DNA from: Escherichia phage EC106
DNA: 64,000 nucleotides
Sequence record: ON210138.1
Strand: one strand, 5' to 3'
The notes beneath the pieces are model-generated. The model made no database searches. It was not told where the DNA came from and saw nothing but the letters and a program-made list of their open reading frames with translations. This document shows positions 6,181 through 55,409 of this stretch, one piece after another; position 1 is the stretch's first letter; every line of letters starts with the position of its first letter. The position numbers and the translations under genes were made by a program.

Positions 6181-6182
6181 AG

Positions 6183-6443: not shown

Positions 6444-7257
6444 CGTCAGCTTGTGACATTACATAACCTTGAAACACACCACCATTCTGGTCATACTGGG
6501 TCTTCATGGCATCTAAGAAGCTGCTTACAGACTCATCATCATCACGGTAGTCCAACCAGAACTTTGTAGCCTTTTCAGGGTTTTCTTTGAAGCTCTTAAG
6601 CATTGCTGCCATAATTGGAGCAGAGTACTTTTTACGCAGTTCACACTTCTGCTTAACACCGTTTACAGTCTTCTCTTTGTACTTATCCATCTCATCCTTA
6701 TTAATGCCAAGTGCATCAATAAGTTTAAGCTCTTCTTGATAGAGTACAAATGCTTCATCAAGGCATCCACGGAGACCTAATAAGGCCCACACACCAGCAC
6801 CAGTAAATTTCTTGGTGAACGCTGTCTGTGGCTTATAACCAGAGCGTAGTATTGCAGTTGTAACTTGGTCACCATTTGTGGCTCGTGAGTCCAGTGAGTT
6901 TTCTTGGTCGTAGAGGAAATCTACTTCTTCCTGTGAATTAACGGCAAACAGTGTCACATAGACAAGTCCGTTCTTGGGAGCACCTAACTTACCATTCTTC
7001 CAGTTCTCTACGCGCGCATGAGAATCAATGTTGATAACTTCTCCATTGAATAGTACACCCGTAACACGGGAACGTAAATCCACCTCACGAAGTTCTTCAT
7101 TAAGGTAGGGTTTAGCAATTCGTCGTTCAATGCTACGGTTTGCTGAGTAAGGCTTTGCACAGTTAGCCCAATCCATGTACCCCATGAAGAAGGAAGCTAC
7201 ACCACAAACGAAATCAATCTTGCAAGGTGTTTTGCTCTGGAACTCTTTGAATTTCAT
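6418..7257 (-). CDS. ParB/Srx-like domain protein (paralog of 2639-3451)
   Basis: IDSHARVENW motif and shared KYSxxxxAAML...FW C-terminal block with 2639-3451. Confidence 0.45.
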   Translation of the reverse strand: MKFKEFQSKTPCKIDFVCGVASFFMGYMDWANCAKPYSANRSIERRIAKPYLNEELREVDLRSRVTGVLFNGEVINIDSHARVENWKNGKLGAPKNGLVYVTLFAVNSQEEVDFLYDQENSLDSRATNGDQVTTAILRSGYKPQTAFTKKFTGAGVWALLGLRGCLDEAFVLYQEELKLIDALGINKDEMDKYKEKTVNGVKQKCELRKKYSAPIMAAMLKSFKENPEKATKFWLDYRDDDESVSSFLDAMKTQYDQNGGVFQGYVMSQADVAFRAYKD

Positions 7258-7262
7258 AGTTG

Positions 7263-7281
7263 CTCTCTCTCTCTCTCTCTC
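7263..7281. repeat. (CT)9 dinucleotide microsatellite
   Basis: ctctctctctctctctctc in intergenic spacer between methyltransferase and ParB-like genes. Confidence 0.9.
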
Positions 7282-7324
7282 ATCTACTAGGTTTGTTTAC
7301 AGGTATACTATATAAATTCTTTTA

Positions 7325-8224
7325 TTAATGCAAGTGTTTTTCTAAAGTATTTATAATTTCTTGTGAGTTGATAGAGCCTGCATAACTCAGTGCAAAACCA
7401 TCTCTCAAATCATTAAACCATTCTTGTTTGATTGCTGAGTAAAGTCCTTCTATGTGTGGTTCGATAAACTGTTTCACTGACACCTTGTCTTTATCTGGTT
7501 CAAAAGCCTTCACAGTACCAGCCTTGCGACCATGCGTGATAATCGTGAACAAGTCTTTGCCATCTAGTTTACCTAAAACACCAACTGGCTGCTCTTTACC
7601 ATCAATCTTGTGACATGGTGGTCTGTATAGTGTGAATTTCTCACGCTTATAGACTCTTACACCATCAACTATCACAGGGGCAATCTTACAAATTTTATCT
7701 GCCCGTTTTTGTCTCTTCCAGATTTGGAAGTTACAGCGTAGTGATGACTCTTTTGCTGAGTAGGCAACTCCATCAATCCTTTCAAAATGAAGGTTAGGTA
7801 GCTCTACTTCATCAATGCAGGTGTACTCTCTGCTAAGTCTGCTAAGATTCTTCTTCCCAAAGTTAATAGGAACTAGGAAGCAAATGTAGTCTGGATTCAT
7901 TGTAGCAGCCTTGTTAAAGAACTTTGTAGACAGACTGTTTGCCTTACCAAATGGAGGGTTGGTAACAATCGCAAAAGGCTTATCTGGAATTTCTAAGTCA
8001 TCTTTCAGGAAGTCTCTTGTGCTAACATCTTCAGAGTCTGGTTCGATGTCGTATAGCACAACATCTTGACAAACCCTCTTAAAAGAGTCTTTCCATCTTC
8101 CGTCACCTGCACAGGGGTCTATAATGCACGAAATAGAGCCTTTAAAGACCTTTTGTAGCTTCTCTTCACACACTCTTATTACTTCGTCTGGTGTGTAGTA
8201 TTTATCAAGTTCTGCTTTAGCCAT
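7325..8224 (-). CDS. gamma-class DNA methyltransferase (N6-adenine or N4-cytosine)
   Basis: YYTP, IDPCAGDG (motif I) and NPPF (motif IV) in gamma-class order. Confidence 0.7.
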   Translation of the reverse strand: MAKAELDKYYTPDEVIRVCEEKLQKVFKGSISCIIDPCAGDGRWKDSFKRVCQDVVLYDIEPDSEDVSTRDFLKDDLEIPDKPFAIVTNPPFGKANSLSTKFFNKAATMNPDYICFLVPINFGKKNLSRLSREYTCIDEVELPNLHFERIDGVAYSAKESSLRCNFQIWKRQKRADKICKIAPVIVDGVRVYKREKFTLYRPPCHKIDGKEQPVGVLGKLDGKDLFTIITHGRKAGTVKAFEPDKDKVSVKQFIEPHIEGLYSAIKQEWFNDLRDGFALSYAGSINSQEIINTLEKHLH

Positions 8225-32755: not shown

Positions 32756-33178
32756 TTATTTCTCTCTCAGTTGGTTAAGTTTCTTTCTAGAACATTTTAA
32801 GTTTTCGGATGAAGAAAAGTCAAGTGTCTTTTCAGAACGTGGATAGTAGTGCCTATCCCAAGAAGTTTCAACATCGTTAATCAGTGACGCTAGATTACAC
32901 AGGTCTGTACCACTTTGCAACCTCTTTTTAAGAGAATCTAGTAAAGCAACTGTGTCTTTAGCTTTACGTCTCGCTGTAGCAACATCTTTCATATGCTCAA
33001 ATACAGAGCATTTTAAGTCATCTTCATAGTTTTCAGACAACTCTATTTCATGTTGTATATCAACCATTCTCCTGTGATGGTGAGCATATTCCCGTTGAGC
33101 AGCAATGTCAAGTTCTTCCAACTTCTGCAAAGCTCTAACAAAGTCAGCTATGTCTGGGTGAACAAACATTTTCTGCAT
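32756..33178 (-). CDS. hypothetical early protein
   Basis: first gene leftward of the divergent control region. Confidence 0.4.
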   Translation of the reverse strand: MQKMFVHPDIADFVRALQKLEELDIAAQREYAHHHRRMVDIQHEIELSENYEDDLKCSVFEHMKDVATARRKAKDTVALLDSLKKRLQSGTDLCNLASLINDVETSWDRHYYPRSEKTLDFSSSENLKCSRKKLNQLREK

Positions 33179-33435
33179 GTAAGCCTCTTTTAAGTAACTA
33201 TTAAGTTTTAATCTTTTATCTTAACGTATTCTATACGTTATACTTTAAAGCTTTTTAAAAGCTATTAAATAATCTTTTAAGAGTTTTAAAGTATCTGTAT
33301 AGTTAAACTGTTAAGTAACCTTTTAAGTAAAAACCCACTTCGCAAAGATTAACACCTTGTCAAGTACATTGTCAACTTGCTTTTTATAATTTTTTGCAGT
33401 AATGTATGAGGTTAATGATTTTAGAGGGAGTAAAA
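33179..33435. promoter_or_regulatory. AT-rich divergent control region with repeated CTTTTAAG motifs, palindromes and TATAAT element
   Basis: CTTTTAAG at 33187, 33274, 33321; palindrome AACGTATTCTATACGTT 33223-33239; TTGTCA x2 and TATAAT at 33385-33390; SD AGGGAG at 33424-33429. Confidence 0.5.
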
Positions 33436-35619
33436 ATGGAAAACGTAGATTTTAAAAACTTACATTTGGTTGGTGATACAGAAACTGATGGTTTACTCCT
33501 TGAGTTCACTAAAGTGCACGTAATGGCCTTTGCAGACTATAAATCTGACGATGAAGAGCCACCTGTATGGGTCTTTACAGATGAGCCTATCCTCGGTCAC
33601 AAGTACACCAAGTACATTAAGGGTGGTTTACGTGAAGGTGTTGAGTTTGCGTTAAAGGCAAAACGACTTTGCATCCATAACGGTCTTGGTTATGACTGGT
33701 GGGTTTTTAATCACATTGCACCTGATTTATGGAACTTTGATAATCCAAAGTGTAAGCCGTGGAGTAATTTCTTTCAGGATTCTCTTATCCAGTCTCGTGT
33801 TCAGTGGATGGATAGACCAACTCCAAAGGGTTATAAAGGTGCTCATGGCTTGGCTGCATGGGGTGCTCGTGTTGGTGTTCGTAAGCCAGAGATTGAGCAT
33901 TGGGGTGTGTGGAATGCAGAAATCTTCACTCGTGTTGTAGAAGATATTCGTATTAACGCCAAAACTAAACGGGCACTTGATAACGAGTATCTCAAGCTTA
34001 AGAAGTGTGGTATAGACACTTATGAAACCTACATGCGAGCTAAAGAAACATCTTTCTGGATGAGTCAACAGGCTATCAATGGTTGGAAAGCTGATAAAGA
34101 ACTTATGGAGTTCCATGTAAAGGAACTTGACAAGTTGACTAATGAGCTTGCTTCAGAGGTTGAACCACATCTACCTCCAACTATTAAGACCAAAGGTAAA
34201 GTCACTGGAGAAGAGTTTGCGAAAGCTTGGAATGAGTATGTTGAAACATTTGGTCATGCAGATGGACTGAAGAGAATTACCAAGTACCCTAAGACAAAGT
34301 ATCGTCAGCAGGTACGTAATGGTGAGATGCAGACATACGAAATCAAACCATTTGGTAAGCCAACTACAAAGATTTTTAACATTGGAAAGAGAAATTGCTA
34401 TACACCAACTAACTCCGTAACTGGTGAAGAGTACAAGGAAGGCTTTGTAGCAATGAAGGATGCTCGTGCAATTTGCAATGAGTTGAACGCAAAGATTGGT
34501 AAGAAATGCAAAGACTGGAAGCCAGTAAAAACAGTCAAAACTGTGAAGTACTATAACAGCCACGTTGTTAACCACTTTGAACTTGAGTCAAGTCGCTACA
34601 CAGGTTTGATTGATGCACCATATACACCAATTGAGTTTGAAGTTTCTCGTATGACTCAGGTAGCAGTTGTTAAAGATTACTTGAAATCAGTTGGTTGGAT
34701 TCCAGATGACTGGAATTACAAGAAAGACTCAGATGGTCGCCCTGTCAAAGTTTGTCGTTTCAAAGACAATAAAAAGATGATTACAAAGCATCCTAAGTGG
34801 CAGGAAATGGTTGAGCGGTGTGGTTTGAGCTATGTTGAGCATGAAGGTGTACAGTACATTGAGCATAACTGGTCTGTGAAGAAGTACACAGATTTGCTTG
34901 AGCCTTGTTTAATCCGTACTTCACCAAAACTTACTGAATCATCTTACGATACGATTGAAGGTGAACTTGGACAGAAGATTGCGAAGTACTATACTTTGAT
35001 GCACCGACGCAGAACTATTGAGAACTCAAAGGACGACGAAAAAGGCTGGTTGAACCAGATTCGTCCAGATGGTCGCCTTAGTGCTGGTGCAATGGTGTTT
35101 GGTACTTCAACTGGACGTATGACGCAATATGGTATTGTAAACGTACCGTCTGGTGCTGCTGTCTATGGAGCACCTATGAGGGAGGTGTGGATTTGTGAGG
35201 AAGGGACTAACGTTGTCTCTGTTGATATGAACTCAGCCCAGCTAGTTCTTCTTTGTAACTTTATGGGTGATAAAGAGTCCACTAAAGCGGTAACACAAGG
35301 TAAAGAAGAGGTTGAGTTCATTCGTCAAGAAGATGGACGCTATTACTGCAAACACTTTGATGAGTACCTCAACCCAGAGATTGATAAGTACCTTCGCTAT
35401 GACTCTGAGAATGACCTGTACGTTGTCTATTCAGGGACTGATGCACATACACTGAACAGTATCTACTTTAGCTTGAACGATGAGCAGGATATCTTGACTT
35501 GTCGAGCTACTCAGGATGAGAATCTTCTTCATGAGATTAGCAAAGGTCGTAAGAAAGCTAAGAATGGTATCTATGCGTCAGTGGCGCATGTAAAACGTTG
35601 TGAATTGCTGGAAGCCTAA
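33436..35619 (+). CDS. family A DNA polymerase, N-terminal part (exon 1); ORF-track start 33406, likely start 33436 after SD
   Basis: 3'-5' exonuclease motif HLVGDTETDG, motif A VDMNSAQLVLL, motif B RKKAKNGIY near the end. Confidence 0.85.
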   Translation: MENVDFKNLHLVGDTETDGLLLEFTKVHVMAFADYKSDDEEPPVWVFTDEPILGHKYTKYIKGGLREGVEFALKAKRLCIHNGLGYDWWVFNHIAPDLWNFDNPKCKPWSNFFQDSLIQSRVQWMDRPTPKGYKGAHGLAAWGARVGVRKPEIEHWGVWNAEIFTRVVEDIRINAKTKRALDNEYLKLKKCGIDTYETYMRAKETSFWMSQQAINGWKADKELMEFHVKELDKLTNELASEVEPHLPPTIKTKGKVTGEEFAKAWNEYVETFGHADGLKRITKYPKTKYRQQVRNGEMQTYEIKPFGKPTTKIFNIGKRNCYTPTNSVTGEEYKEGFVAMKDARAICNELNAKIGKKCKDWKPVKTVKTVKYYNSHVVNHFELESSRYTGLIDAPYTPIEFEVSRMTQVAVVKDYLKSVGWIPDDWNYKKDSDGRPVKVCRFKDNKKMITKHPKWQEMVERCGLSYVEHEGVQYIEHNWSVKKYTDLLEPCLIRTSPKLTESSYDTIEGELGQKIAKYYTLMHRRRTIENSKDDEKGWLNQIRPDGRLSAGAMVFGTSTGRMTQYGIVNVPSGAAVYGAPMREVWICEEGTNVVSVDMNSAQLVLLCNFMGDKESTKAVTQGKEEVEFIRQEDGRYYCKHFDEYLNPEIDKYLRYDSENDLYVVYSGTDAHTLNSIYFSLNDEQDILTCRATQDENLLHEISKGRKKAKNGIYASVAHVKRCELLEA

Positions 35620-35891
35620 GTCTGTAAAGATATGGTAATCAGCAGCGAAGTCTCTGTTAGGACTCCTAAAGCAAATAACATAACTATAGAGATTCCTAAC
35701 AGAGAAACGTTCAGAGACTATCGAAAAGCATACTTAATGTATGAACTGAGTAGAGTAGGGTGGTAAGCTAATGACCATTCCCAAGTGCAACGGTAGTATT
35801 ACTACTACGTGATATAGTCCGACACTCCGTAGAAATGCGGAGAAGTTCATAAGAGAACTGGTACACCTTGCGAGTGTATTGACCAGATGTA
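35575..35891 (+). other. putative ORF-less group I intron (or split-gene junction) in DNA polymerase gene; boundaries approximate
   Basis: polymerase motif B ends exon 1 and GAGDEK continuation starts 35892; about 270-310 nt of structured non-coding sequence between. Confidence 0.5.
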
Positions 35892-36446
35892 TTGTTCGGT
35901 GCAGGTGATGAGAAGTTTGCTAAGACGATTAAAGCTGCAACTACTCAGGAAGGTGCGCTGACTAAACAGACTTACTTTATACGTTTGCCTAAAATTAAGA
36001 AGCTGTTAGATGACTTGGAAGCTGACTACAAAGCAACTAAAAAGGCACTTGAAGAGGTGTTTGGTAAGACTGCTGCAATCTCTAAAGGGGGTTTTGTAAA
36101 GGTTGCTGGAGCTTGGTTGTGGTGTAAATCTCCACATAAGTTATTGAATTATTTGCTCATGGGTTCGGAAAGTCAGATTCAGAACGAGGCAATTAACCTT
36201 GCTTGCCGTCGTATGATTGACGAAGGTTTGATGAAGTTGAACGGTCGTAAACCAGCCATAGGTGCTCGTTTATTGTGCTCCTATCACGACGAGACAAGTT
36301 GGGAATGTCCAGAAAGTATGACGGCAGAGGTGAAGGCTGTCACTGATTGGTATTACGGACAAGCCTCTAAGAACTTAGGGCTAAAGAGTGAAACACTGGT
36401 AACTGGTACTGGTAAGGTTGGTAAAAGCTGGTATGAGGTACATTGA
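35892..36446 (+). CDS. family A DNA polymerase, C-terminal part (exon 2)
   Basis: LFGAGDEKFAKTI continues motif B; motif C SYHDE; C-terminal ...YEVH. Confidence 0.85.
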   Translation: MFGAGDEKFAKTIKAATTQEGALTKQTYFIRLPKIKKLLDDLEADYKATKKALEEVFGKTAAISKGGFVKVAGAWLWCKSPHKLLNYLLMGSESQIQNEAINLACRRMIDEGLMKLNGRKPAIGARLLCSYHDETSWECPESMTAEVKAVTDWYYGQASKNLGLKSETLVTGTGKVGKSWYEVH

Positions 36447-36958
36447 TGCGAGATTGTGGATTCACACATGAACAGTTAAAGTCTTGGTTAAACTATGACC
36501 CCGAAACAGGGGTCTTAACGTGGATTGGCAGACCTCCACATAGTAGTAGGGTGGTTATTGGGAGCCAAGCCGGAGCAATCAAGCGCACAAGGTCTGGTGT
36601 GTATATGCACACACAGATTTTAGGATACAGGACAGGCAATCACCGAATTGCTTGGTTCTGGATGACAGGTAAGTGGCCTGATAAACACATTGACCATAAA
36701 GATGGAGATGGTTTGAATAACGCTTGGGACAATCTAAGAGAGGCCACAAAAGAGCAGAACATGTCCAATAGGAGACAACCTAGAACATCAAAAAACTTAA
36801 AAGGTACAAGTAGAAGCAAGTCTGGTAAGTGGATAGCCCAGATTAACCATAATGGCAAGACTATACATATAGGGACATACACAACAGAAGAAGAAGCCCA
36901 TAAAGCTTACTGTGAAGCTGCTATTAAACTCCACGGAGAGTTTGCAAAACTAAGTTGA
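36443..36958 (+). CDS. HNH homing endonuclease with AP2-type DNA-binding domain
   Basis: HIDHKDGDGLNNAWDNL HNH motif; C-terminal GKWIAQI...YTTEEEAHKAY AP2-like; start overlaps polymerase stop. Confidence 0.75.
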   Translation: MMRDCGFTHEQLKSWLNYDPETGVLTWIGRPPHSSRVVIGSQAGAIKRTRSGVYMHTQILGYRTGNHRIAWFWMTGKWPDKHIDHKDGDGLNNAWDNLREATKEQNMSNRRQPRTSKNLKGTSRSKSGKWIAQINHNGKTIHIGTYTTEEEAHKAYCEAAIKLHGEFAKLS

Positions 36959-37009
36959 CAAGGTGCTCAGGGAAGAGTACCTTATACTATATCTTGTATA
37001 GGAGGGCTT

Positions 37010-37219
37010 ATGAGCCACCGTGGAAGAACCCATGCAGCGATGATGAAAGGTGCTTCAAAGGAAACTATCAAGAACCGTAAGCAGAAGTTGTTTGAGAGAA
37101 TGAACAGGCTAATTGACAATTCATCTCTTTCAGGTTCTGAGAAGGTTTTCTTGAAAGGTAATCTGAAAAGCATTGCACAAGAACTTATTGACATTGAGTA
37201 TTGGAGACATCAAAAATGA
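37010..37219 (+). CDS. hypothetical protein
   Basis: co-oriented small ORF. Confidence 0.35.
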   Translation: MSHRGRTHAAMMKGASKETIKNRKQKLFERMNRLIDNSSLSGSEKVFLKGNLKSIAQELIDIEYWRHQK

Positions 37220-37428
37220 CACTTGCAGACGTTATTCAGCAACTTCACGACAATTGCTATACTCCAGAGTTGATTCAGGAGATGTCCATTGTAGTGATGC
37301 CTAGTAAGTTCGTAAGAGCTTTTAATGGTGACTCTTTAAGGGCTGCACATATCCTTATTGTTGACGGCAAGATTGCAAGAGACCGTACAGGAGTCCTTAA
37401 GGGCGAACGTATTAATATTGACCTCTGA
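37201..37428 (+). CDS. hypothetical protein
   Basis: co-oriented small ORF. Confidence 0.35.
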   Translation: METSKMTLADVIQQLHDNCYTPELIQEMSIVVMPSKFVRAFNGDSLRAAHILIVDGKIARDRTGVLKGERINIDL

Positions 37429-37444
37429 GTATTGGTATACCAAA

Positions 37445-37600
37445 ATGAAACGCAAAGTAAAATTATTCAGTTTGTATGGAAGAGTCGGTAAAGGTTTTGA
37501 TTGGCAACTGCTACGTTCAGATGTTAAAAGCAACGAGTTAGCACAGCTTATTATAAACTATCGACGAACGTACAGAGAGGTAGAGCATCGTGAACAGTAA
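37445..37600 (+). CDS. hypothetical small protein (internal start of ORF 37358-37600)
   Basis: ATG at 37445 avoids overlap with upstream gene. Confidence 0.25.
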   Translation: MKRKVKLFSLYGRVGKGFDWQLLRSDVKSNELAQLIINYRRTYREVEHREQ

Positions 37601-37844
37601 AATTGAAAAGTCTGATGAAGTTATCAGAAGCAAAGATAAAGCTACAGCATTAGTAGCTGAAGCTTGGAGCAGGGGCTTGGACTACGAATGGTATCTTAGT
37701 ATATGCCAAGGGCTATCAGTTTCCCCTGTACAAAAAGAGATTTTTGATAAACTCTACGCAGTTTGTCAAGAGGGATACAATGAAGCCATGCTTCAAAACT
37801 GCATGAGTTTAATCAACCCAAAAGCATCTGATTTATTCTTTTGA
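37590..37844 (+). CDS. hypothetical protein
   Basis: co-oriented small ORF. Confidence 0.35.
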   Translation: MNSKIEKSDEVIRSKDKATALVAEAWSRGLDYEWYLSICQGLSVSPVQKEIFDKLYAVCQEGYNEAMLQNCMSLINPKASDLFF

Positions 37845-37853
37845 GGAAACACT

Positions 37854-38060
37854 ATGCAAGTTTTAGTAAACTATATCTACCGTTACGATGTTATTCATTC
37901 TACTACAACGGTATCTCAACGTAATCCAATTGTACCAAGAGAAGGTGAGTGGGTTCGTATTGAAGGTTGGACTTACACTGTAGAGAACATCATTCACAAG
38001 TTTGATGTGGCTGGTGATGTTCAGGTTATTGCTGTAGAAATTGGTGGTAAGAGAAAATGA
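37854..38060 (+). CDS. hypothetical protein
   Basis: co-oriented small ORF. Confidence 0.35.
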   Translation: MQVLVNYIYRYDVIHSTTTVSQRNPIVPREGEWVRIEGWTYTVENIIHKFDVAGDVQVIAVEIGGKRK

Positions 38061-38242
38061 AAACAGAACCTGTAAGAACTGAAGACGGAAACATTGAGAC
38101 GTTCATAATCACAGTAGCTGGTGGTGAGTTCTCTTGCAAATGTGGGTGTAATTGCTTTCATAAACCTGACAACACAAAATTAGGTTTATATGAATGTAAT
38201 AGCTGCGGTGCAAGATTCTTAGATAAGAGCAAGGAGATGTGA
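38057..38242 (+). CDS. small zinc-ribbon protein
   Basis: CKCGCNC...CNSCG motifs. Confidence 0.35.
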   Translation: MKTEPVRTEDGNIETFIITVAGGEFSCKCGCNCFHKPDNTKLGLYECNSCGARFLDKSKEM

Positions 38243-39342
38243 TGACAATTCTGTACAAACAAAATAAAGACGGTTCCTTCAACATCTGGTCATGCGGTGC
38301 TATAGGTAACAAAGTTATTACAACCTATGGTAAAGAAAACGGAAAGATGATGTTTGAAGAGTATACAGCAGAACCTAAAAACATCGGTAAAAAGAATGAG
38401 CGTAATGCTGAACAGCAAGCTCTCTTTGAAGTTGCTGCTAAGTATAAAAAGCAAGTTGACCGCAAAGGTTATGCTTACACAAAAGAGTCTGCACAGAATA
38501 CTGAGAAGGTAGGTGTACAGCTTGCTCATGATGCTGCAAAGGTTAGTCATGCAAAGTATCTGAAATTTCCTGCTGATGCTCAACCGAAACTGGATGGTGT
38601 TCGTTGTAGAATTTCAAGAGATGATGATTCAGTTAGTTTCACAGCCTATTCTCGTGAGAATACTGTTTACAACGTTCCAACAGAACTAATCCCAGATTTG
38701 CTTTTGTTGCTTAAATTACATCCACAAGTTGAAGACTTTGATGGAGAGATTTATGCTCATGGTTGGGACTTAGAAGATATTGTATCTATGATTAAGAATG
38801 CTGACAATCCAGACCGTCACCTTCTTAAGTTCTACTGGTATGATATCTGCGACAATTCAAAAACTTGGCCTGAGCGTCGTGAAGTTATTGATAACTCACC
38901 CATTGTTGAGCTTGGTGATACCTGTAGAGTGGTTCCTGTACAGACTATCCGTGTAAATTCTTGGGAAGAGTTTGATGAAGCCCATGATAAGTGGGTTGAA
39001 GCTAAGTTTGAAGGTGCAATGTACCGTTCAATCTCTGAAGACTCCTTCTACGAGTGTTGTCACCGTTCATACTTCTTGATTAAGCACAAGAAGATGCACA
39101 CTGAAGAGTTTAAAGTGACTGGTGTAAAGACCGATAAGCGTGGTCATGGTAAGTTCGTTGTAGAGACTCTTCCTAACGTCTTTGTAGATGTCTCATGGAA
39201 GACTACACACGAGAAGAAACAGTATCTTGCTGAACATCCTGAAGAGTTTATCGGGAAGCCTTTAACGGTTCAGTTCCAGAAGATGACTCGTAAGGGTTCT
39301 TTACAGTTCCCTGTTGGGCTAGTTATTAGGGATTACGAATAA
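38239..39342 (+). CDS. ATP-dependent DNA ligase
   Basis: adenylation motif I PKLDGVRCRI; 367 aa. Confidence 0.85.
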   Translation: MMTILYKQNKDGSFNIWSCGAIGNKVITTYGKENGKMMFEEYTAEPKNIGKKNERNAEQQALFEVAAKYKKQVDRKGYAYTKESAQNTEKVGVQLAHDAAKVSHAKYLKFPADAQPKLDGVRCRISRDDDSVSFTAYSRENTVYNVPTELIPDLLLLLKLHPQVEDFDGEIYAHGWDLEDIVSMIKNADNPDRHLLKFYWYDICDNSKTWPERREVIDNSPIVELGDTCRVVPVQTIRVNSWEEFDEAHDKWVEAKFEGAMYRSISEDSFYECCHRSYFLIKHKKMHTEEFKVTGVKTDKRGHGKFVVETLPNVFVDVSWKTTHEKKQYLAEHPEEFIGKPLTVQFQKMTRKGSLQFPVGLVIRDYE

Positions 39343-39349
39343 AAAGTTG

Positions 39350-39378
39350 TTGACATAGAAAATTTGGTGAGTATGCTG
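39350..39378 (+). promoter_or_regulatory. putative sigma70-like promoter (TTGACA-16-TATGCT)
   Basis: perfect -35 at 39350-39355; followed by nested palindrome GGTGAGTA...TACTCACC 39366-39405. Confidence 0.4.
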
Positions 39379-39551
39379 AGCAGCATAAACCAACGGGTAC
39401 TCACCAGCATCACTTAAGAGTCTTCTAAGAGGGTTTTAAGTAATGTATTACACGGTAAGGTGATGTGAAGTCTGGTCTGGCATGGTGTAGTCTGGTATGG
39501 AAGGGTGGCAGTAGCCTTATAAAAAATCTGCCAAATAAGCTATAAAATCTG

Positions 39552-39580
39552 TTGACAAGTCAGGTGTTATAGCTTATTTT
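39552..39580 (+). promoter_or_regulatory. putative sigma70-like promoter (TTGACA-17-TATTTT) flanked by 9-bp inverted repeat
   Basis: -35 at 39552-39557; inverted repeat AAGCTATAA / TTATAGCTT brackets the -35. Confidence 0.4.
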
Positions 39581-39624
39581 TATACTCAATGTAATACAAA
39601 ATTTAATATAACTTTGAGGTCATT

Positions 39625-40008
39625 ATGAAAAAGATTTTATTAGCTGCTGCAATGGTTATGGCAATGAATTTACCAGTCAATGCAACAGAACTTCCAAATG
39701 TGGACTTATCAGGTGTTCCAGAAGACACTTGCCAGATTGTAAAAGGTGTTGCTCTAGCTAAAGGTGAGCTACTTAAACCAATCTCTGAAGAATCTTTAAC
39801 AGAGATGACTGATAAGGTAACTGACTATCAATATCGTGTTCTTGCAGAGTATTTCCTGCAATCTGCAAACATTAAAGAGAAACACCATGATGATATTGAT
39901 GTACAGGCGATGCTCAACCACCGTATCCAGTTTAAAGAAGATTTGATGCAAAAAGCTATGTATGGTGTTGAGTATTTCTTAGAAAACAGAAGCTGCACAG
40001 GTATTTGA
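39625..40008 (+). CDS. secreted/periplasmic hypothetical protein
   Basis: N-terminal signal peptide MKKILLAAAMVMAMNLPVNA. Confidence 0.45.
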   Translation: MKKILLAAAMVMAMNLPVNATELPNVDLSGVPEDTCQIVKGVALAKGELLKPISEESLTEMTDKVTDYQYRVLAEYFLQSANIKEKHHDDIDVQAMLNHRIQFKEDLMQKAMYGVEYFLENRSCTGI

Positions 40009-40009
40009 T

Positions 40010-40222
40010 ATGGCTCTTAAAAAGTTACATCCCAGAAGCGGTTATGGTAAGATAATTGATGATACAGACGGCTTTACAGTCTTTACAGTTATCTGTCAAG
40101 ATGATTCACAGATTGAAAAGGCTCTTGATGATTATCTTAATGATGAACGTGAAAAGGTTAGGGCTACAAACATAGATTCATTGATTGACACTTCACGCAA
40201 ACGGAAGAAGAAAGATGAATGA
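40010..40222 (+). CDS. hypothetical protein
   Basis: co-oriented small ORF. Confidence 0.35.
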   Translation: MALKKLHPRSGYGKIIDDTDGFTVFTVICQDDSQIEKALDDYLNDEREKVRATNIDSLIDTSRKRKKKDE

Positions 40223-40514
40223 GGTTTTTGACCCTTATGCCCCACAAGATGATTGGGAGGCTGATAGAGAGGCTGAAATGGAGAGTTATATTTGTCCAAT
40301 GGATGTAGACGAAATGAGAGACTTCGTTGCACATCGTTTTAAGAGAGAGATTAAATCCAGAGGTCTTTCTCAAGAGCAAGTCGCTAAAATTTGTGGTATC
40401 TCTCAAGCTCGTGTATCCAACATAATCCACCTCACTGGGAATGTCTCTCTTGAGTATATGTTGGAAGTATGTGAAAAATTTGGTGTTAATTTTAATTTAA
40501 GGTTGGCAGACTAA
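40185..40514 (+). CDS. helix-turn-helix DNA-binding protein (XRE-like)
   Basis: LSQEQVAKICGISQARVSNI HTH. Confidence 0.45.
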   Translation: MTLHANGRRKMNEVFDPYAPQDDWEADREAEMESYICPMDVDEMRDFVAHRFKREIKSRGLSQEQVAKICGISQARVSNIIHLTGNVSLEYMLEVCEKFGVNFNLRLAD

Positions 40515-40515
40515 T

Positions 40516-40875
40516 ATGAAACGTGAAAACATTATCCACTCTGAAAATTTCGCATTAGGCTTTTATGGTGTACCTACTCACCTTGAAAAGTATTATGGTG
40601 TAAAGATTCTTTCCAATCTCATTATGGCTTACAAAGATGGTAAGATTAAGCATACTGAGAAGAAACGTGTCATGGGCTACATGGCTGTAGGTTCAGCAAT
40701 CTCAAACATCAAGCTGGAAACCACTAGTAGCCAGATTGTGAAAGACCACTTCATCAAAGAGCTTTACCAGAATCTTGATGGTGTAGATGTTCAGGCTGTT
40801 TGGTTGGATGTTGATGGTCACAACTACACAAGTTTTGTTTTCAAAAACGATGACATTAAGTGTCTGTTCCCATAA
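40516..40875 (+). CDS. hypothetical protein
   Basis: co-oriented ORF. Confidence 0.35.
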   Translation: MKRENIIHSENFALGFYGVPTHLEKYYGVKILSNLIMAYKDGKIKHTEKKRVMGYMAVGSAISNIKLETTSSQIVKDHFIKELYQNLDGVDVQAVWLDVDGHNYTSFVFKNDDIKCLFP

Positions 40876-40888
40876 TAGGTGATTAACT

Positions 40889-41404
40889 ATGATTGATGTC
40901 TACTTACAAGATGCTCATGCAGATTTCCTTAAAGAGATGCTTAAAAAGTTTATGGCTTCGCAGTATGAGAATGAAGCATCTTTTAAAATAGTTACATGTG
41001 GCGATGAAGCTGGTTTTGTTGAGATTGAGCATGAAGGTACTGGAAAGACTGTTTGTAAGCTACCTGATAGTATGTTCTCTAGCACATTCTTAACAAAGAC
41101 TAGTATAAATGTTAAGCTTGTGCCTCAGATTGAAACATACTCTGGTACAGATTATCCTAAAGGTTTTAAGTCACTGATGAAGTACTTCTTAGATGACTTT
41201 GTGAGTAATCTTCTGAGGGAGGTAAAAGAAAGTCGTACAGTGTTGACTGTAGAGAACATGGGAGGGACTATCAGGGTTACTTCTGACTATTTTGTTATGA
41301 GCCTCTTCGACTTCGTTCCTAAGAACTTTGATGGTATTCTGGATGAAGAAGATGACTGTGTAGACTTTATATTGGTTCTTGAGCCAGTTTTTGAGGTTAA
41401 GTAA
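40889..41404 (+). CDS. hypothetical protein
   Basis: co-oriented ORF. Confidence 0.4.
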   Translation: MIDVYLQDAHADFLKEMLKKFMASQYENEASFKIVTCGDEAGFVEIEHEGTGKTVCKLPDSMFSSTFLTKTSINVKLVPQIETYSGTDYPKGFKSLMKYFLDDFVSNLLREVKESRTVLTVENMGGTIRVTSDYFVMSLFDFVPKNFDGILDEEDDCVDFILVLEPVFEVK

Positions 41405-41665
41405 ATGAAAATTGAACACTGTTATGAGTCTGATGGAACACCTATCCGATGCCCACATTGTGGGTGTACAGACTTACAAGGTGAGGTAAGTGAAATAGTC
41501 AACGGTCATATCGCTGAAGAGAGTACAAGGTGTACAGGATGTAATGAAATCATTGCTTTCTGGGCTTATGGTTCATACCAACCCACACCACACTTAATCT
41601 ACCATAGCAATAAAGCTGTGAAGAATGTTATCAACTGGTTTATTAAGAAAGGATTTACAAAATGA
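41405..41665 (+). CDS. zinc-finger hypothetical protein
   Basis: CPHCGC...CTGCN motifs. Confidence 0.4.
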   Translation: MKIEHCYESDGTPIRCPHCGCTDLQGEVSEIVNGHIAEESTRCTGCNEIIAFWAYGSYQPTPHLIYHSNKAVKNVINWFIKKGFTK

Positions 41666-42207
41666 TTAAATTAATCTTCGCAAGTGGTGAAAATGGGGAG
41701 TTTGGTACTCCAACTGGTATGCCGTGGCCTCGACATAAACATGATATGCAAGAGTTTAAGAGACTTACTAAAGGTAACTTAGTAGTCATGGGTAATGAAA
41801 CTTTTAAGACTCTGGGTAGTAAACCATTACCAGAACGTACAAACCTCATCTTAACAAATTCTGTACCATACTTAGGCATAGACTTTGACAAAGACGATGT
41901 AATGTATGCTAAAGCTAGTAAAGAGTCTTTTGGAGCATTTTTGAAGTATCTTGATAGCTCTATTGATGAAGATGTCTTTGTAATTGGTGGTGCAGGTGTT
42001 CTTGTCAATGCTTTGCCGTATGCTGGTGTAGTTTTCCATACAGTTTTCCATAAAGTTACTGAAGAGGCCACTGTGTATTTACCTTTTGAAAACTTCTTTG
42101 AGAAGCTGTATGATAACCGTGTATTTACAAAGGTACAGTCAAAACCATCAGAGGATGGTAAAGCAACCTTTGAAATTTATGTTCCACAAGTAAAAGGACA
42201 CTTTTGA
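41662..42207 (+). CDS. folA: dihydrofolate reductase
   Basis: MIKLIFASGENGEFGTPTGMPWP N-terminus; upstream of thymidylate synthase. Confidence 0.8.
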   Translation: MIKLIFASGENGEFGTPTGMPWPRHKHDMQEFKRLTKGNLVVMGNETFKTLGSKPLPERTNLILTNSVPYLGIDFDKDDVMYAKASKESFGAFLKYLDSSIDEDVFVIGGAGVLVNALPYAGVVFHTVFHKVTEEATVYLPFENFFEKLYDNRVFTKVQSKPSEDGKATFEIYVPQVKGHF

Positions 42208-42208
42208 T

Positions 42209-43108
42209 ATGTCACAAGCAGATACAAGTTACAAAAATATCCTGAACCATGTTTTATCCGTTGGTGAACTGCGTACTACACGAACTGGAGATGTTATCTC
42301 TGCATTTGCTCCACCACAGTTTCGTTTTGATATGAGAACTGGTTTCCCACTCTTAACATCTAAACAGGTGTTTACACGGCAAGTTATTGGGGAAGCTCTA
42401 TGGTTCCTGAATGGTGAGAATAAACTTGGCGAACTCCGTTACCGTACTTGGGGTGAAAATGATGGGGAACGCTGGACTATCTGGTCAGATGATTTTAAAC
42501 GCTGGTTAAGCTCTAACTATTCTTCTGAACAAGACTGGTTAGAAGATGCAGGTGGGAGAATCTACGGAGTTCAGTGGAGAAACTTTGAAGGTCATAATGG
42601 TTGTGTTGTAGACCAGTTAGAGGCCTTAGTAACGAAGATGAAGGGTGATATTACAGACCGCTACATGCTTGTTAATGCTTGGAATGCAGCAGATATTGCA
42701 GCTAACTCGATGGCTTTAGCACCTTGCCATGTACTGTTTCAGATTTATATCACTAATGAGGGTGAAGTTGACTTGCAATGGTATCAGCGTTCTGTAGACA
42801 CCTTTTTAGGACTTCCATTTAACATTGCGTCTTACGGCTTCATCTTAGAAGTTCTTTGTAAGATGACTGGATACACTCCACGGTACTTGATAGGTGTCTT
42901 TGGAGATACTCAGATTTATCAGAACCATATGAAACAGGTTTATGAACTGATGAACAATGAAGAGTTCCATGCACCTACTTTTGAGATTGGTGTGCAGCTT
43001 AACACTCTAAGTGACCTTAAACATCTTACTGCAAGTGATTTTATTGGTGGCATTAACAACTACCAACATGCAGGGAAGATTGAAGCACCTTTATCAGTAG
43101 GCAAGTAA
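42209..43108 (+). CDS. thyA: thymidylate synthase
   Basis: active-site LAPCHVLFQ and conserved length. Confidence 0.9.
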   Translation: MSQADTSYKNILNHVLSVGELRTTRTGDVISAFAPPQFRFDMRTGFPLLTSKQVFTRQVIGEALWFLNGENKLGELRYRTWGENDGERWTIWSDDFKRWLSSNYSSEQDWLEDAGGRIYGVQWRNFEGHNGCVVDQLEALVTKMKGDITDRYMLVNAWNAADIAANSMALAPCHVLFQIYITNEGEVDLQWYQRSVDTFLGLPFNIASYGFILEVLCKMTGYTPRYLIGVFGDTQIYQNHMKQVYELMNNEEFHAPTFEIGVQLNTLSDLKHLTASDFIGGINNYQHAGKIEAPLSVGK

Positions 43109-43111
43109 AAC

Positions 43112-43144
43112 AAAAAAAAAAAAAGGCTCCCGTAAAAAGGAGCC
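43112..43144 (-). terminator. rho-independent terminator at convergence point (minus strand strong, plus strand weak)
   Basis: A13 run then GGCTCC-N8-GGAGCC hairpin. Confidence 0.65.
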
Positions 43145-43151
43145 TTAAACT

Positions 43152-43523
43152 TTATTTTTCAGTATTCTTTGTGTTCTTTTCAGTAATAGCTTGGAGGGCT
43201 GATACTGATTGAGCCAGATTGTTCACACTGTCAGAGAATTTATCAAGAGTTTTGGTAAGTTTTGCATTCTCACCCTTAACATTCTCTAACTGGACTTTCT
43301 GGTTCTCCATCCCTAACTGAAGCATTCTCATGTCAGACTGTAAGTCACGAATAGCTGAATAGTTACTTTTGGAATAATTATCTAGCTGCTGTAACTTTGT
43401 TGTGACAGACACTTCTTGCTTACCACTTGAAACTTGTATCGTGGTATACATCCCAATAACACTAAAAATACCAACAACAATTGCACCAATATTGTTTTTA
43501 AAAGCTTCCTCTAGCCACTTCAT
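43152..43523 (-). CDS. membrane-anchored coiled-coil protein (possible lysis or fibre-associated)
   Basis: N-terminal TM helix then heptad-rich soluble domain. Confidence 0.4.
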   Translation of the reverse strand: MKWLEEAFKNNIGAIVVGIFSVIGMYTTIQVSSGKQEVSVTTKLQQLDNYSKSNYSAIRDLQSDMRMLQLGMENQKVQLENVKGENAKLTKTLDKFSDSVNNLAQSVSALQAITEKNTKNTEK

Positions 43524-43717
43524 TTATTCTCCCCCTTAAAAGCTTTTTCTAAGTTATCTACGAACTCATCATCAATAGGTGTGTCTGTCTTACCCGCAAG
43601 GTATCTTGCAAGCTTAAAGAACACTTTCTCAATCATGTATTCACTTAGAAGGGATAAAATGAGTTTCCAGAAGAAGCTACCTAGATTTTTTAGAAGAATT
43701 GCTAGGATTGTAGGCAT
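43520..43717 (-). CDS. small membrane protein
   Basis: 65 aa, hydrophobic N-terminus. Confidence 0.35.
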   Translation of the reverse strand: MPTILAILLKNLGSFFWKLILSLLSEYMIEKVFFKLARYLAGKTDTPIDDEFVDNLEKAFKGENK

Positions 43718-43796: not shown

Positions 43797-46154
43797 TTAA
43801 GCAGTTCTTACCCAAGCCATTAACTTGTAGAACTGGTTAGTAACACTAAATGCTGAACCAGAACCTGTACCACCAGTGTCACCACTAACCGTATGACTGT
43901 GAGCACCAATACCTACAGAGTGGGAATGGTCGCCAGCACCGCTAGTCCAAAAAGAGAAAGAATGACTGTGGTTCCCTGACGCATAAGTTTCATGACCACC
44001 AGACCTATATGCTACTGCATATGATGATGTTCTATTACCACCTACACCAGTACCGTTCCACGCCTCAATGTAGTGGGTGTGCTCACCATTTGTGCTAGTA
44101 GAACCACTACCATAGTGAGAATGACCACCAGTACTGTTAGTTCCCTTCGTACCATAATCAAAAGATGAAGTGGTAGCAGAGAAACTATGAGTGTGTGAAG
44201 GTAAATTACCAACAGCTAACGCCACAGAATCTGAACCACCAGTTGTAGCAACATCTGAACCATTTGCTGCTGCAATTCTAATAGTTCTGCCAACACCATT
44301 GTTCAGGTACGTCCAAGTTAGACCAGGAAGTGCTGTATTAGGGTCAACATTACTGTTAAACCACGTTACAATACCTACTGGATAGATTTTGTTAAGGTCT
44401 GTAGAGTCACTAATTGCCTGTGCAATCTTCTGGTCAGTTTCAGCTTTAGTATATGCGCCGATATCTGAAGGGGTTGGTTTAAAATCAGTTGTATAAAACT
44501 GTGCTTCTCCAGCGTATTCACCCTTGTCATCATAGGCATAGGTGAATGCTGCTAAGCCCAATGAGCCGTACAAAAAAGAGATGCCCCTTGAATGTGCAGC
44601 AGTCTTACTAGAGTGCGCAACATGAATTGCTAAATCTCTTAAGCCGTCAGTAACACCATTATTTCTGACAAAACCTGAGTACCCAATATTAAATGCTGAA
44701 TGGTCTTCAAGGTTATTTACAGTTACAGTCATTAAGGATTGGTCTAATAGCTTAGTCTTAACAAAATATCTATTATCTAAGTTAGCCCAATCTTGTGGTT
44801 GAACCTGCCCATTAATATACAGGTTCTTATTCATACTAACCAATGTTGGCTCTAGGGAAATTTGAGTGCCTGAAAAGCTGTTGCTCAAGGTTACCACGTT
44901 AGAATTAGCAGTTCCTACGCCCAGCCACCACCTAGATACATTCGCAGTATCAACACCACGGATATATTGTGGCTGTCCCTGTGTTAAGCTCCTTAATACC
45001 AAACCCTCGTTGTCAGACACAATAGTTTGCACATTTGTGAAAGTATTAGATACATTAAGTTTAGCAAGATTACTCAAAGTAGCTGCCGGAATGTATCTAG
45101 AGTCAATGTTAGTCCAATCAGAAGGTTGAACTTGACCAGTGATTCTTACATTCTTATTAAATGCTACGCCAGACGAGTTTAAGATAATAGAGGTATTGCC
45201 CTTGTAATCGTAAAATGTGATATCAGAGCTTGTATCACCTTTACCAATAAACCATAAATTATTGTACTCGCTATCTTTTGCTAGGATGAATAACTCCTCA
45301 CCTACATCTTTATTCTGTAACATGATAGCAGCTTTATTAACTTTTACGGAAATAGGTTTACCGAATGTATTTTCACCGCTAAAAGCATTATTAGCAGCTA
45401 ACTGTGCAAATCTCTGATTAGCTGCTGTCTGAGTAAAATATCTAGCATCTAAGTTAGAGAAGTCAGACGGCTGAACTTGACCAGTGATTGATAAAGACCT
45501 ATTAAAAGAAGCAACCGTGCCTAGAGTGAGGATGGAACCTTGTTTACTCTCGATTTGAACATCAAGATTACCCCTAATCAGGTTCCCAATAGCCCAAGTT
45601 TTTTCATTACTTGCGTCCCTACCTACAATAGCAGAGTATGCGCTATCCCCACTCACAGGAGATTTTAATGTTAACTGTTCCCCATTTGCGATGATAGTCT
45701 GTTTAGAATTGAATGAGTTTGTAACAGCAAGCCTTGCATACCTTGCATCATTCTCTTCATTAGCTCTCATCCCAAGTTCATTAGGGCTTGGTTTATTCAG
45801 AGTATGATAAACAGTTGCCGACCTTGAAGCATCTGCAATAGTTAGTTTAAGGCCATTTGCGTTGATTTTAAAAGTCTTTAAAACATCCCCAATAGTAATC
45901 TCAGAAGAGCCTGTTGGGTCAAAGACTGCCTTACCACCATAAAGTAACTTAACAATTCCTAAGTCACCCGTCATAGTGCTGCCAGCAATCTGAACAAATC
46001 TTTCTAGTTTAAAAGATGCTAAGAAGTCTTGATAGGTCATTCGACGGTCTTCATCACCCAGCATTTCAGGTCTCTTTTTAACTCTGACATGAAGAAGGTC
46101 ATCTGAACGGATTGTATCGATTGAGTTTAATTCACTCAACTTGTAATCTGCCAT
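43797..46154 (-). CDS. tail fibre protein with His-x-His repeat tip
   Basis: 785 aa; three [13 protein letters not shown] repeats; C-terminal HTHS/HSHS repeats ending ...WVRTA. Confidence 0.75.
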
Positions 46155-46170
46155 TATAAATTTTCCTCTA

Positions 46171-46190
46171 AAAAGGGGCTATAAAGCCCC
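46171..46190 (-). terminator. rho-independent terminator between the two tail fibre genes
   Basis: GGGGCU-AUAA-AGCCCC hairpin with U-run on minus strand. Confidence 0.6.
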
Positions 46191-46200
46191 TGTAAAGAAA

Positions 46201-47373
46201 TTAAGCTGTTCTCTGCCATACATACAGTACGAAGGATGGCTGCTCAATATTAACCGCCTGACCTCCACCAACACTATTCGTATTGCCACTATGTGTATGC
46301 TCAGAAGAAGAAATTGCCACAGTTCCACTATGTGTATGTGAACCAATACCAACTGTGTGGATGTGAGCACCAATACCAACTACGTGGCTGTGGTTACCAG
46401 ATGCACCAGATGTAACGCTAAAACTGTGTGAGTGTGCACCATCACTAGATGTCCTTGATGTTCTCCATGCACCACCACCATCAGAGTCAGCTACAGCATT
46501 ACCAGTACCATCATTTTCTCTAGGGTACACATCATGGTTGTGAGTGCCATCTGTACTTGTGTTACCTGATACGTTGTGTGTATGGTTACCAGTTGTATTA
46601 GTCTCTTTTGTTCCATAGTCGAAAGAGTTGGTAGCCTTAGTTCCATAGTCAAAAGCTGAAATTGACACAGTTGCATTATGAGTGTGACCACCACCACTAA
46701 GAGACACAGAGTGAGAGTGTTGAGGCATGTTATTAACTGACAAAGTGACAGTTGAAGAACCAAATACAGAACCTGCTGGTCTTGTGTCAGAGTCATAACC
46801 AACCAATGCTCTACCTTTTGAAACTAACTCCCAAGTACCTCCACAAATTAAATATGTAGAAGGGTTTGCAGAGTTCATGGAAAGATGGATAGTACCTACT
46901 GGATAGGAAGCCTGAACAGCCTTGTACAAGTTATTTACTGCTCTTGCTGTAGCGTACTTATCTGCATCTTCGTTATAAAGGTTAGATGCTGTCCAGTTCT
47001 GAACATTACTCAACCCTACCTGTGCCTTAGTTGTATTGTGTGGGTTACTCTTGTCTTTGATATGTTGTTGGACAAGATTATTAACCTCTTCTGAAGACAT
47101 AATCTGTAGATTTGCTCTTGCCTCAGCTACATTGACAATATCTGATAAGTTATTTGCAGCGACTAACTGAAGAGCGTTAATAACATTATCTAAACCAATT
47201 TGTGTTTTAGTAACACCATGAGGGTTATTTCTTAGGCTTGAGTGTGGAGCAAGTAATTGCTCAAGAGTACATCTCTTATCTTCAATACCCTGCTTAAGAT
47301 GGAAGATATCACTAAGGTCAATTGGTAAGGCTGCTTGAGGCAAGGCACTAATTTGAATTTCACCTACTGCCAT
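46201..47373 (-). CDS. tail fibre protein paralog with His-x-His repeat tip
   Basis: 390 aa; HSHS, GGHTHN, GNHTHN, AHSHS, GSHTHS repeats; C-terminus ...WQRTA similar to 43797-46154. Confidence 0.75.
   Translation of the reverse strand: MAVGEIQISALPQAALPIDLSDIFHLKQGIEDKRCTLEQLLAPHSSLRNNPHGVTKTQIGLDNVINALQLVAANNLSDIVNVAEARANLQIMSSEEVNNLVQQHIKDKSNPHNTTKAQVGLSNVQNWTASNLYNEDADKYATARAVNNLYKAVQASYPVGTIHLSMNSANPSTYLICGGTWELVSKGRALVGYDSDTRPAGSVFGSSTVTLSVNNMPQHSHSVSLSGGGHTHNATVSISAFDYGTKATNSFDYGTKETNTTGNHTHNVSGNTSTDGTHNHDVYPRENDGTGNAVADSDGGGAWRTSRTSSDGAHSHSFSVTSGASGNHSHVVGIGAHIHTVGIGSHTHSGTVAISSSEHTHSGNTNSVGGGQAVNIEQPSFVLYVWQRTA

Positions 47374-47375: not shown

Positions 47376-55409
<8,034 letters not shown>

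Follow-up and report, generated by a model that had tools for sequence, protein, structure and literature searches.

Two consecutive minus-strand open reading frames (ORFs) of Escherichia phage EC106 (sequence record ON210138.1) encode tail fibre proteins with dense arrays of His-x-His (HxH) motifs and closely similar C-terminal ends. This raises the question of whether the phage carries one receptor-binding tip twice or two fibres that share a scaffold and differ in specificity. The pair was examined in a window of 64,000 nucleotides (nt), the whole stretch of DNA analysed here, to which all positions refer. The two genes, referred to as those of the short (STF) and the long (LTF) tail fibre, are the following (aa, amino acids):

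46201..47373, minus strand: STF gene, 390 aa; orthologue of VpaE1 gp74, Bas63 gp26 and Sf14 gp52
43797..46154, minus strand: LTF gene, 785 aa; orthologue of VpaE1 gp75, Bas63 gp27 and Sf14 gp53

We are confident that the two genes code for the receptor-binding fibres of a member of the genus Felixounavirus, with tips of the T4 gp37 type on both. Megablast of the region led to Felixounavirus genomes, with NBEco005, VpaE1 and IME338 as the top matches, in which both genes are labelled as tail fibre proteins. The EC106 window shares about 95% DNA identity with VpaE1 over 57 kilobases, and the proteins share 97% (STF) and 81% (LTF) identity with their VpaE1 counterparts. STF was assigned to PHROG 2097, 'tail fiber protein' (E 2.4e-136), and LTF to PHROG 4277 (1226 bits); neither fibre matched any family in an NCBIfam search. 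The STF family spans the Ounavirinae.

The arrangement is real and already published for VpaE1, Sf14 and Bas63, and nothing reported here changes its current understanding. In VpaE1, two fibre proteins, both homologous to the C-terminus of T4 gp37, were found in virions by mass spectrometry (VpaE1 paper, 2015). Two fibre sets, both of them virion components, were described for Sf14 (2025), and cryo-electron microscopy (cryo-EM) of Bas63 placed STF and LTF, with HxH counts of 7 and 6 and with variable tips, on the baseplate (2025). Incorporation of only one of the two fibres into the particle, named in a preliminary description of the EC106 sequence as a finding that would speak against its reading, is thus at odds with what is seen in these relatives. 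Gene order and domain plan are the same in all Felixounavirus pairs compared, namely VpaE1 gp74/gp75, Bas63 (JohannRWettstein) gp26/gp27, Sf14 gp52/gp53 and Felix O1 (FO1a) gp75/gp76. EC106 adds detail at the level of alleles: the STF needle has nine sites, the LTF head is of the T4 type and its lipopolysaccharide (LPS) pocket is intact, and the heads differ between the fibres. With regard to annotation, positions 46201-47373 and 43797-46154 can be considered settled as the Felixounavirus short and long tail fibres.

At sequence level, the clear relationship between the two proteins is confined to their C-terminal portions. BLAST aligned STF residues 136-390 with LTF residues 564-785 (34% identity, E 4e-36), and the chains end in YVWQRTA and MAWVRTA, respectively. 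The N-terminal parts gave no significant BLAST match to each other and have in common one weak 14-aa motif (in one fibre GIEDKRCTLEQLLA), a similarity reached by 19 of 2000 shuffles. The paralogous C-terminal regions, the near-identical ...W(V/Q)RTA ends and the divergent N-terminal parts proposed in the preliminary description were all recovered, as were three internal repeats in the longer fibre, at LTF aa 225, 340 and 449. The domain plan of the pair is as follows:

46969..47373, minus strand: STF N-terminal part, aa 1-135; baseplate-binding region and two NPHxxTKxQxGLxNV helix/turn repeats (aa 50, 110)
46204..46968, minus strand: receptor-binding tip of STF, aa 136-390; a homologue of the T4 gp37 tip, with collar, needle and head
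46291..46719, minus strand: STF HxH array, aa 219-361, nine motifs
46435..46533, minus strand: STF head, aa 281-313; predicted to contact the receptor, placed between the outward and returning HxH strands
45765..46154, minus strand: LTF N-terminal baseplate-binding region, aa 1-130; conservation of 0.94-0.96 across relatives, role taken from Bas63
44466..45764, minus strand: LTF rod, aa 131-563; three ...GQVQPxDxxNxDxRY... repeats
45429-45491, 45084-45146 and 44757-44819, minus strand: LTF rod repeats, coinciding with three PF20744 stretches
43800..44465, minus strand: receptor-binding tip of LTF, aa 564-785; made up of collar, head and a needle that bears six HxH (43893-44195)
43884..44180, minus strand: T4-like cassette, LTF aa 659-757; 81% aa and 86% DNA identity to T4 gene 37
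43971..44072, minus strand: LTF head, aa 695-728, T4-type

Nine HxH motifs were identified in STF (aa 219, 230, 264, 278, 314, 328, 337, 346 and 359), comprising 18 of its 24 His residues, and six in LTF (aa 654, 678, 692, 729, 743 and 752). The strings HSHS, HTHN, HTHS and AHSH are all present, and none of 20,000 shuffles of either protein reached the observed number of motifs, so that the dense repeats described earlier are a genuine property of both fibres. The retention of the STF motifs was followed in an alignment of 46 Ounavirinae homologues with identities as low as 41%. Every one of the nine was kept in 36 to 46 of these proteins, and nine was the modal count (31/46); the motifs are therefore neither a chance nor a compositional feature.

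The needle of T4 gp37 provides the template for these arrays. The crystal structure of the T4 gp37 tip (2XGF) matched LTF aa 647-763 (E 3.9e-46) and STF aa 146-360 (E 8.3e-26; chain residues 18-226), the latter alignment covering collar, needle and head; PF03335, which together with PF12604 represents this type of tip in Pfam, was found in LTF with 38.3 bits. The T4 sequence (from AF158101) contains HxH at residues 883, 915, 929, 966, 980, 989 and 998, in agreement with the seven iron atoms described along the needle (PMC6957217; Bas63 paper), where the axial metal is Fe2+. STF keeps all 14 of the Fe-ligand His residues (7/7 HxH sites) and LTF 12 of 14 (6/7 sites); both fibres also retain G921, G964, G978 and F970, which are critical for the structure. 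STF has two motifs beyond the T4 set; they occupy the end nearest the collar, with aa 230 on one strand and aa 359 on the other. In comparison with T4 gp37, LTF thus has one site fewer and STF two more; Bas63 LTF has six HxH, as has EC106 LTF, whereas seven were counted in the paper for Bas63 STF.

The HxH motifs are probably axial metal sites with six His per trimer, an assignment that depends on collinear homology with a solved structure. Each fibre would be a homotrimer with its N-terminus on the baseplate, STF on wedge protein 2 and LTF on a 100-aa LTF-platform protein. With two His from each chain, every HxH would then supply the six ligands of one octahedral metal site along the axis of the needle, giving six predicted sites in LTF and nine in STF. 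Such sites would act as structural rivets for folding and rigidity and not as receptor contacts. The proposal of T4-like metal coordination made in the preliminary description is supported by the direct homology to 2XGF and by the conservation of all aligned Fe-ligand His residues.

The path of the chain determines which part of the protein is the tip. According to the Bas63 cryo-EM paper, both felixounavirus fibres have a collar, a needle with HxH motifs and a head, and the chain returns to the collar. In EC106, the chain would accordingly pass from a gp10_C-like collar outwards along a six-stranded needle to a small head domain and back again. Since the gp37 fold reverses at the head, as it also does in Bas63, the conserved ...WxRTA C-terminus is predicted to lie close to the collar, and the head that contacts the receptor midway along the array, between the ascending and descending HxH strands. 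Both STF and LTF align collinearly with T4 gp37 through the head; the hypervariable spot is located mid-array, and the C-terminal end is conserved. Conservation among 21 non-redundant relatives was distributed as follows:

STF N-terminal half: 0.93-0.98, the most conserved part of STF
STF aa 271-330 (head): 0.45-0.53, lowest in STF
LTF aa 1-120 and 571-660: 0.92-0.96
LTF rod: blocks as low as 0.30-0.68
LTF aa 691-720 (head): 0.21, lowest in LTF
LTF aa 751-785 (C-terminal end): 0.94-0.99

In both fibres, conservation is lowest exactly at the head segments, while the C-terminal ends are conserved. What the paralogues share is therefore the scaffold of collar and needle and not the receptor-binding surface. 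The shared C-terminal tip of the preliminary description has to be corrected in this sense: the paralogous HxH needle scaffold is indeed common to both proteins, but the variability map and the Bas63 topology indicate that the C-terminus is not the tip and that the heads differ. Accordingly, the determinants of specificity are assigned not to the C-termini but to the heads, at about 46435-46533 in STF and 43971-44072 in LTF.

Some relatives deviate from this plan. The LTFs of four loci (L010, L021, L024 (wV8) and L019) are longer (812-849 aa) and have four HxH each; a non-His segment (GSFGYFRSD...FYTASGAF...) replaces the usual head-proximal HxH, and the architecture of the tip may differ. Seven HxH are present in the LTF of Citrobacter phage Moogle (L023). 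In two IMG/VR contigs, the LTF frame is interrupted (L018 and L020; 541 aa; 457 + 336 aa), possibly by a frameshift, an assembly error or pseudogene formation.

The head of EC106 LTF is of the T4 type. LTF residues 659-757 align without gaps to residues 896-994 of T4 gp37 (81% identity, 99 aa). The DNA at 43888-44174 (287 nt) is 86% identical to T4 gene 37, but only about 73-76% identical to the corresponding DNA of many other felixounaviruses. Among the 25 loci compared, a T4-type LTF head was found in VpaE1 and AYO145A only. When the head residues were mapped on a mutagenesis study of T4 (PMC6957217), the patch involved in binding of both LPS and OmpC (G940, G942, G943, S947 and Y949) proved identical to that of T4, and so did the LPS-specific patch (I933, N937 and G938) and W936. 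LTF thus keeps the whole LPS-glucose pocket together with W936, on a collar, needle and head homologous to those of 2XGF. The OmpC patch differs from that of T4 by K945R and I951V and is unchanged at the third position (Y953Y). VpaE1 infects E. coli B strains via a truncated LPS core (VpaE1 paper, 2015). Because the LPS-pocket residues are all kept and VpaE1 with the same head uses a truncated core, the receptor of LTF is most likely a B-type LPS core with exposed glucose, that is, a truncated outer core as used by T4 and by VpaE1 on E. coli B. Use of OmpC by LTF is uncertain.

The head of STF (DVYPRENDGTGNAVADSDGGGAWRTSRTSSDG) is unrelated in sequence to the heads of LTF and T4, has none of the T4 LPS/OmpC patch residues, and differs from the LTF head of EC106 in length as well. 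It presumably binds a different LPS or core epitope. An unrelated head fits a second specificity without proving one, and the dual receptor specificity suggested in the preliminary description is in this respect compatible with the comparative data, given that the two heads of EC106 differ. For phage engineering and host-range prediction, the LTF head can be treated as a T4-type LPS-glucose-binding cassette and the STF head as a different one. The head cassettes of Bas63 and Felix O1 differ from those of EC106, and the two heads of Felix O1 are alike, unlike those of EC106.

The distribution of heads in the 25 loci revealed that head cassettes are shuffled across the genus and that one cassette can occur in either fibre. 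In Felix O1, both fibres carry almost one head (GGRYGGDSIGGKHRVQVSG.EQVSSVAGDHSH), with 81.6% DNA identity over 271 nt. The STF and LTF genes of another locus (L022) share 200 nt at 91%. These pairs are indicative of gene conversion between the paralogues. Practically the same head on STF and LTF was likewise observed in L011 and L016. The Felix O1 locus is that of a Salmonella phage (FO1a, L027), with STF at 6891-8057 and LTF at 4501-6840.

The sole DNA similarity between the STF and LTF genes of EC106 is a 33-nt stretch encoding the sequence VGIGAHxHTV. Conserved motifs of this kind are called His boxes, a term that was not found in a literature search. His-box DNA flanking the heads would provide the microhomology at which head cassettes are exchanged and thus form a natural seam for head swaps. 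Fibre and adhesin genes are described as recombining at or near their most conserved motifs in the shuffling of T-even and lambda fibres, as far as this work (Tetart et al. 1996/1998) is cited in PMC3157838. The C-terminal part of T4 gp37 and gp38 derive from lambda (PMC3157838). As with the domains shuffled in T-even and lambda phages, the heads between the boxes are exchanged among the relatives of EC106 and between paralogues, with the conserved motifs as presumed seams. The partners differ: here they span families (Ounavirinae, Straboviridae) and also include the two fibres of one genome. The tip swapping suggested in the preliminary description fits the cassettes exchanged with T4 and, in Felix O1, between STF and LTF.

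Three other readings of the fibre pair were considered. The HxH arrays could be a compositional or beta-strand feature without metal binding, as no metal analysis exists for Felixounavirus fibres and an AlphaFold2 monomer could not show the geometry. The motifs, however, align one-to-one with the Fe-coordinating His residues of T4, inside the ungapped 99-aa stretch; the T4 gp37 substitutions H929A and H931A are lethal (PMC6957217); and each motif is conserved in distant homologues while the residues between motifs vary. Absence of metal binding is highly improbable in the light of these data. STF and LTF could also make up a single composite fibre, one as its proximal and the other as its distal half, in the manner of T4 gp34/gp37, given that their genes are adjacent and of unequal length and that the LTF rod resembles the gp34/gp37 rod repeats (three PF20744 stretches; Bas63 comparison). 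Cryo-EM of Bas63 and Sf14, on the contrary, shows two separate fibre sets, 430 and 630 angstroms, at different baseplate sites, and STF and LTF each possess a conserved N-terminal anchor and a complete collar-needle-head tip of their own. A composite fibre is scarcely credible and was rejected on the latter grounds.

In the third reading, both fibres would recognise the same receptor and merely add avidity. Practically one head is carried on both fibres in FO1a, L011, L016 and L022, so that a single specificity is viable in the genus, and felixounaviruses have generally been reported as dependent on LPS only. Against this, the heads of EC106 are unrelated in sequence and length, the T4 patch residues are absent from STF, and the two genes have no DNA similarity beyond the 33 nt of the His box. 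We consider a common receptor unlikely for EC106 and favour the assignment of different targets to the two fibres.

Several points weigh against the interpretation of the pair as metal-containing fibres of the gp37 type. For EC106 itself, trimerisation, metal content, receptors and virion incorporation are deduced from homology. The seventh T4 site is missing from LTF (H998/H1000 are replaced by T760/G762). The AlphaFold2 model of the STF monomer, based on the 46-sequence alignment, had a mean pLDDT of 59, a pTM of 0.25 and values below 50 in the needle, and a Foldseek search of this model against PDB gave 0 matches at E <= 0.001, the C-terminal domain of T4 gp10 being the top weak one. Such a monomer model says nothing about a trimeric needle or its metal geometry. 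Finally, T4 needs gp38 to fold the tip module of gp37, but tblastn with T4 gp38 against the window and the whole VpaE1 genome gave no match better than E 0.2, so that folding may differ from that in T4. This result agrees with the remark of the Sf14 authors that no Mu-type fibre chaperone is encoded in Sf14 (2025); the annotation of VpaE1 lists no fibre chaperone either. If a needle 81% identical to that of T4 indeed folds without a gp38-type chaperone, this would mean that the needle requires no chaperone or that its helper has escaped recognition; candidates for such a helper would be the two conserved small membrane proteins whose genes lie 3' of LTF.

Domain roles in the N-terminal part of STF were taken from the Bas63 cryo-EM paper. 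The NPHxxTKxQxGLxNV repeat (47044-47224; STF aa 50-67 and 110-127) corresponds to the 'triple alpha helix and turn' motif of Bas63. On its own, it matches many otherwise unrelated PHROG tail-fibre families and is therefore a widely shared fibre building block. The rod of LTF contains three stretches of PF20744, the 'gp37 trimerization region' (gp37_trimer), with 178.1 bits at a cut-off of 21.7. Other Pfam matches in LTF were Phage_fiber and gp37_C, and aa 287-346 showed a weak match to the T7 gp17 fibre (4A0T/4A0U). The STF collar was recognised as Gp10_C (PF21939; 63.5 bits, cut-off 27) and matched PDB entries 2FKK/5IV5 at E about 4e-5, while LTF scored 22.7 bits with PF21939, below the Pfam cut-off. 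A collar of the type known from the T4 gp10 C-terminal domain and gp12 thus precedes the STF needle. T4 gp10 is a baseplate protein, whereas the Gp10_C-like collar of EC106 belongs to a receptor-binding fibre. A further difference to T4 is that its fibre is kinked and composed of four proteins; in EC106, a single protein forms the whole short fibre, carries the tip and is joined directly to the baseplate.

The genes upstream of STF encode baseplate proteins, among them the presumed attachment sites:

47376..47678, minus strand: LTF-platform protein, 100 aa; PDB 9NDY chain S, 'LTF platform protein (gp025)', E 1e-64
47678..48535, minus strand: baseplate wedge protein 1, 285 aa; PDB 9NDY, 'Wedge protein 1 (gp024)', E 8.5e-184
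48538..50007, minus strand: baseplate wedge protein 2, 489 aa, Baseplate_J (Pfam PF04865); length and gene order as in Bas63 wedge protein 2

The match of these neighbours to gp024 and gp025 of the Bas63 baseplate structure 9NDY identifies the two fibre ORFs of EC106 as orthologues of Bas63 gp26 and gp27. In Bas63, STF is attached to domain 2 of wedge protein 2, and LTF to the LTF-platform trimer at the baseplate (Bas63 cryo-EM paper, 2025). The gene order in EC106, namely wedge protein 2, wedge protein 1, LTF platform, STF, hairpin, LTF and two small membrane proteins, is the same in AYO145A, FO1a and VpaE1.

The two fibre genes are separated by a short spacer with a conserved stem-loop:

46155..46200, minus strand: intergenic region, 46 nt; hairpin 46190-46175, U5 tract 46174-46170, and lower stem

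On the minus strand, the sequence GGGGCT-TTAT-AGCCCC followed by TTTTT (46190-46170) lies between the STF stop and the LTF start. It forms a GC upper stem of 6-7 base pairs (bp) with a 4-nt loop and a U5 tail (core free energy -12.9 kcal/mol). In a context of 67 nt, the fold is two-tier, with a minimum free energy of -18.5 kcal/mol and z = -2.89; in both the minimum free energy and the centroid folds, the lower stem is formed by UUUCUUUA, the 8 nt directly behind the STF stop, and the Shine-Dalgarno sequence of LTF (UAGAGGAA). The 46-nt spacer is conserved in all 25 loci. Its GC stem is invariant and its loop varies freely (TTAT, ATCA, TGAT, GTAT, TGAA, ACAC and others). The same two-tier fold was predicted for 16 of 16 distinct intergenic sequences.

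Most likely, this stem-loop terminates transcription weakly, with leakage, and/or masks the Shine-Dalgarno sequence of LTF and so couples LTF to STF expression, as judged from sequence and predicted folding; it would tune the output of LTF relative to that of STF. The preliminary description had a terminator at 46171-46190 separating the genes. A hairpin followed by U5 is indeed located there, but as a terminator it is at best weak. Most loci have a U tract of only 4-5 nt, and the distant relatives L014 and L023 have none but keep the stem. A consensus terminator scan of the window did not list the hairpin; we suspect that extension of the stem by one A-U pair may leave four U in the tail window. 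The consensus fold, for its part, retains both stems, but covariation in the lower stem is thin (2 compensatory pairs).

It is possible, though doubtful, that the element is primarily a translational device, in which the lower stem hides the LTF Shine-Dalgarno sequence until ribosomes ending at the STF stop open it, or else a stabiliser of the mRNA. Such a role agrees with the pairing of UUUCUUUA to UAGAGGAA, with the recurrence of the two-tier fold in all distinct spacers and in the consensus, and with the loss of the U tract in loci that keep the stem. It also agrees with the result of a promoter scan, in which no promoter-like site was present between the hairpin and the LTF start, so that LTF expression must rely on read-through. 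On the other hand, pairing between U-rich and purine-rich segments easily arises by chance, compensatory change is limited to two pairs, and a GC hairpin with U5 has the classical form of a terminator. In AYO145A, the site is annotated as a rho-independent terminator (WebGeSTer prediction). We retain the combination of leaky termination and/or Shine-Dalgarno masking. The more specific proposal that the stem-loop is a dosage device, in which a leaky terminator and a lower stem hiding the ribosome-binding site set the LTF:STF ratio, coupled with gp38-independent folding of the needle, is speculative and rather improbable. If true, it could explain the sub-stoichiometric occupancy of LTF in Bas63, which amounts to 0-6 per particle according to cryo-EM.

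In VpaE1 and AYO145A (loci compared: L001, L002 and L005), no in-frame stop closes the LTF frame upstream, where it continues through the hairpin, so that naive ORF calling gives LTF 807-810 aa instead of 784-787 aa.

Two small minus-strand ORFs of 65 and 123 aa are located directly 3' of LTF (43152-43717). The shorter product has an N-terminal hydrophobic segment, and the longer one a hydrophobic segment followed by an apparent coiled coil. ORFs of the same sizes (64-65 and 123-124 aa) were present behind LTF in all 17 related loci examined for them. They belong to PHROG 402 and 4038 (function unknown) and occupy the place that gp38 and t have behind gene 37 in T4. By gene order, the 123-aa ORF probably corresponds to Sf14 gp55, which is given as 'holin or lysozyme' in the Sf14 list and is marked 'Yes' in a column taken to indicate detection in virions.

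A strong bidirectional terminator-like hairpin (43123-43146; 9 bp, with T10 behind it on the minus strand) lies between the convergent thymidylate synthase gene on the plus strand and the fibre operon on the minus strand. The hairpin between STF and LTF is much weaker than this one, which the AYO145A annotation lists on both strands. The thymidylate synthase gene (42209-43108) and the preceding dihydrofolate reductase gene (41662-42207) are part of a plus-strand gene block at about 33000-43100 within otherwise minus-strand coding DNA, where the GC and AT skews are seen to reverse at about 34-42 kilobases.

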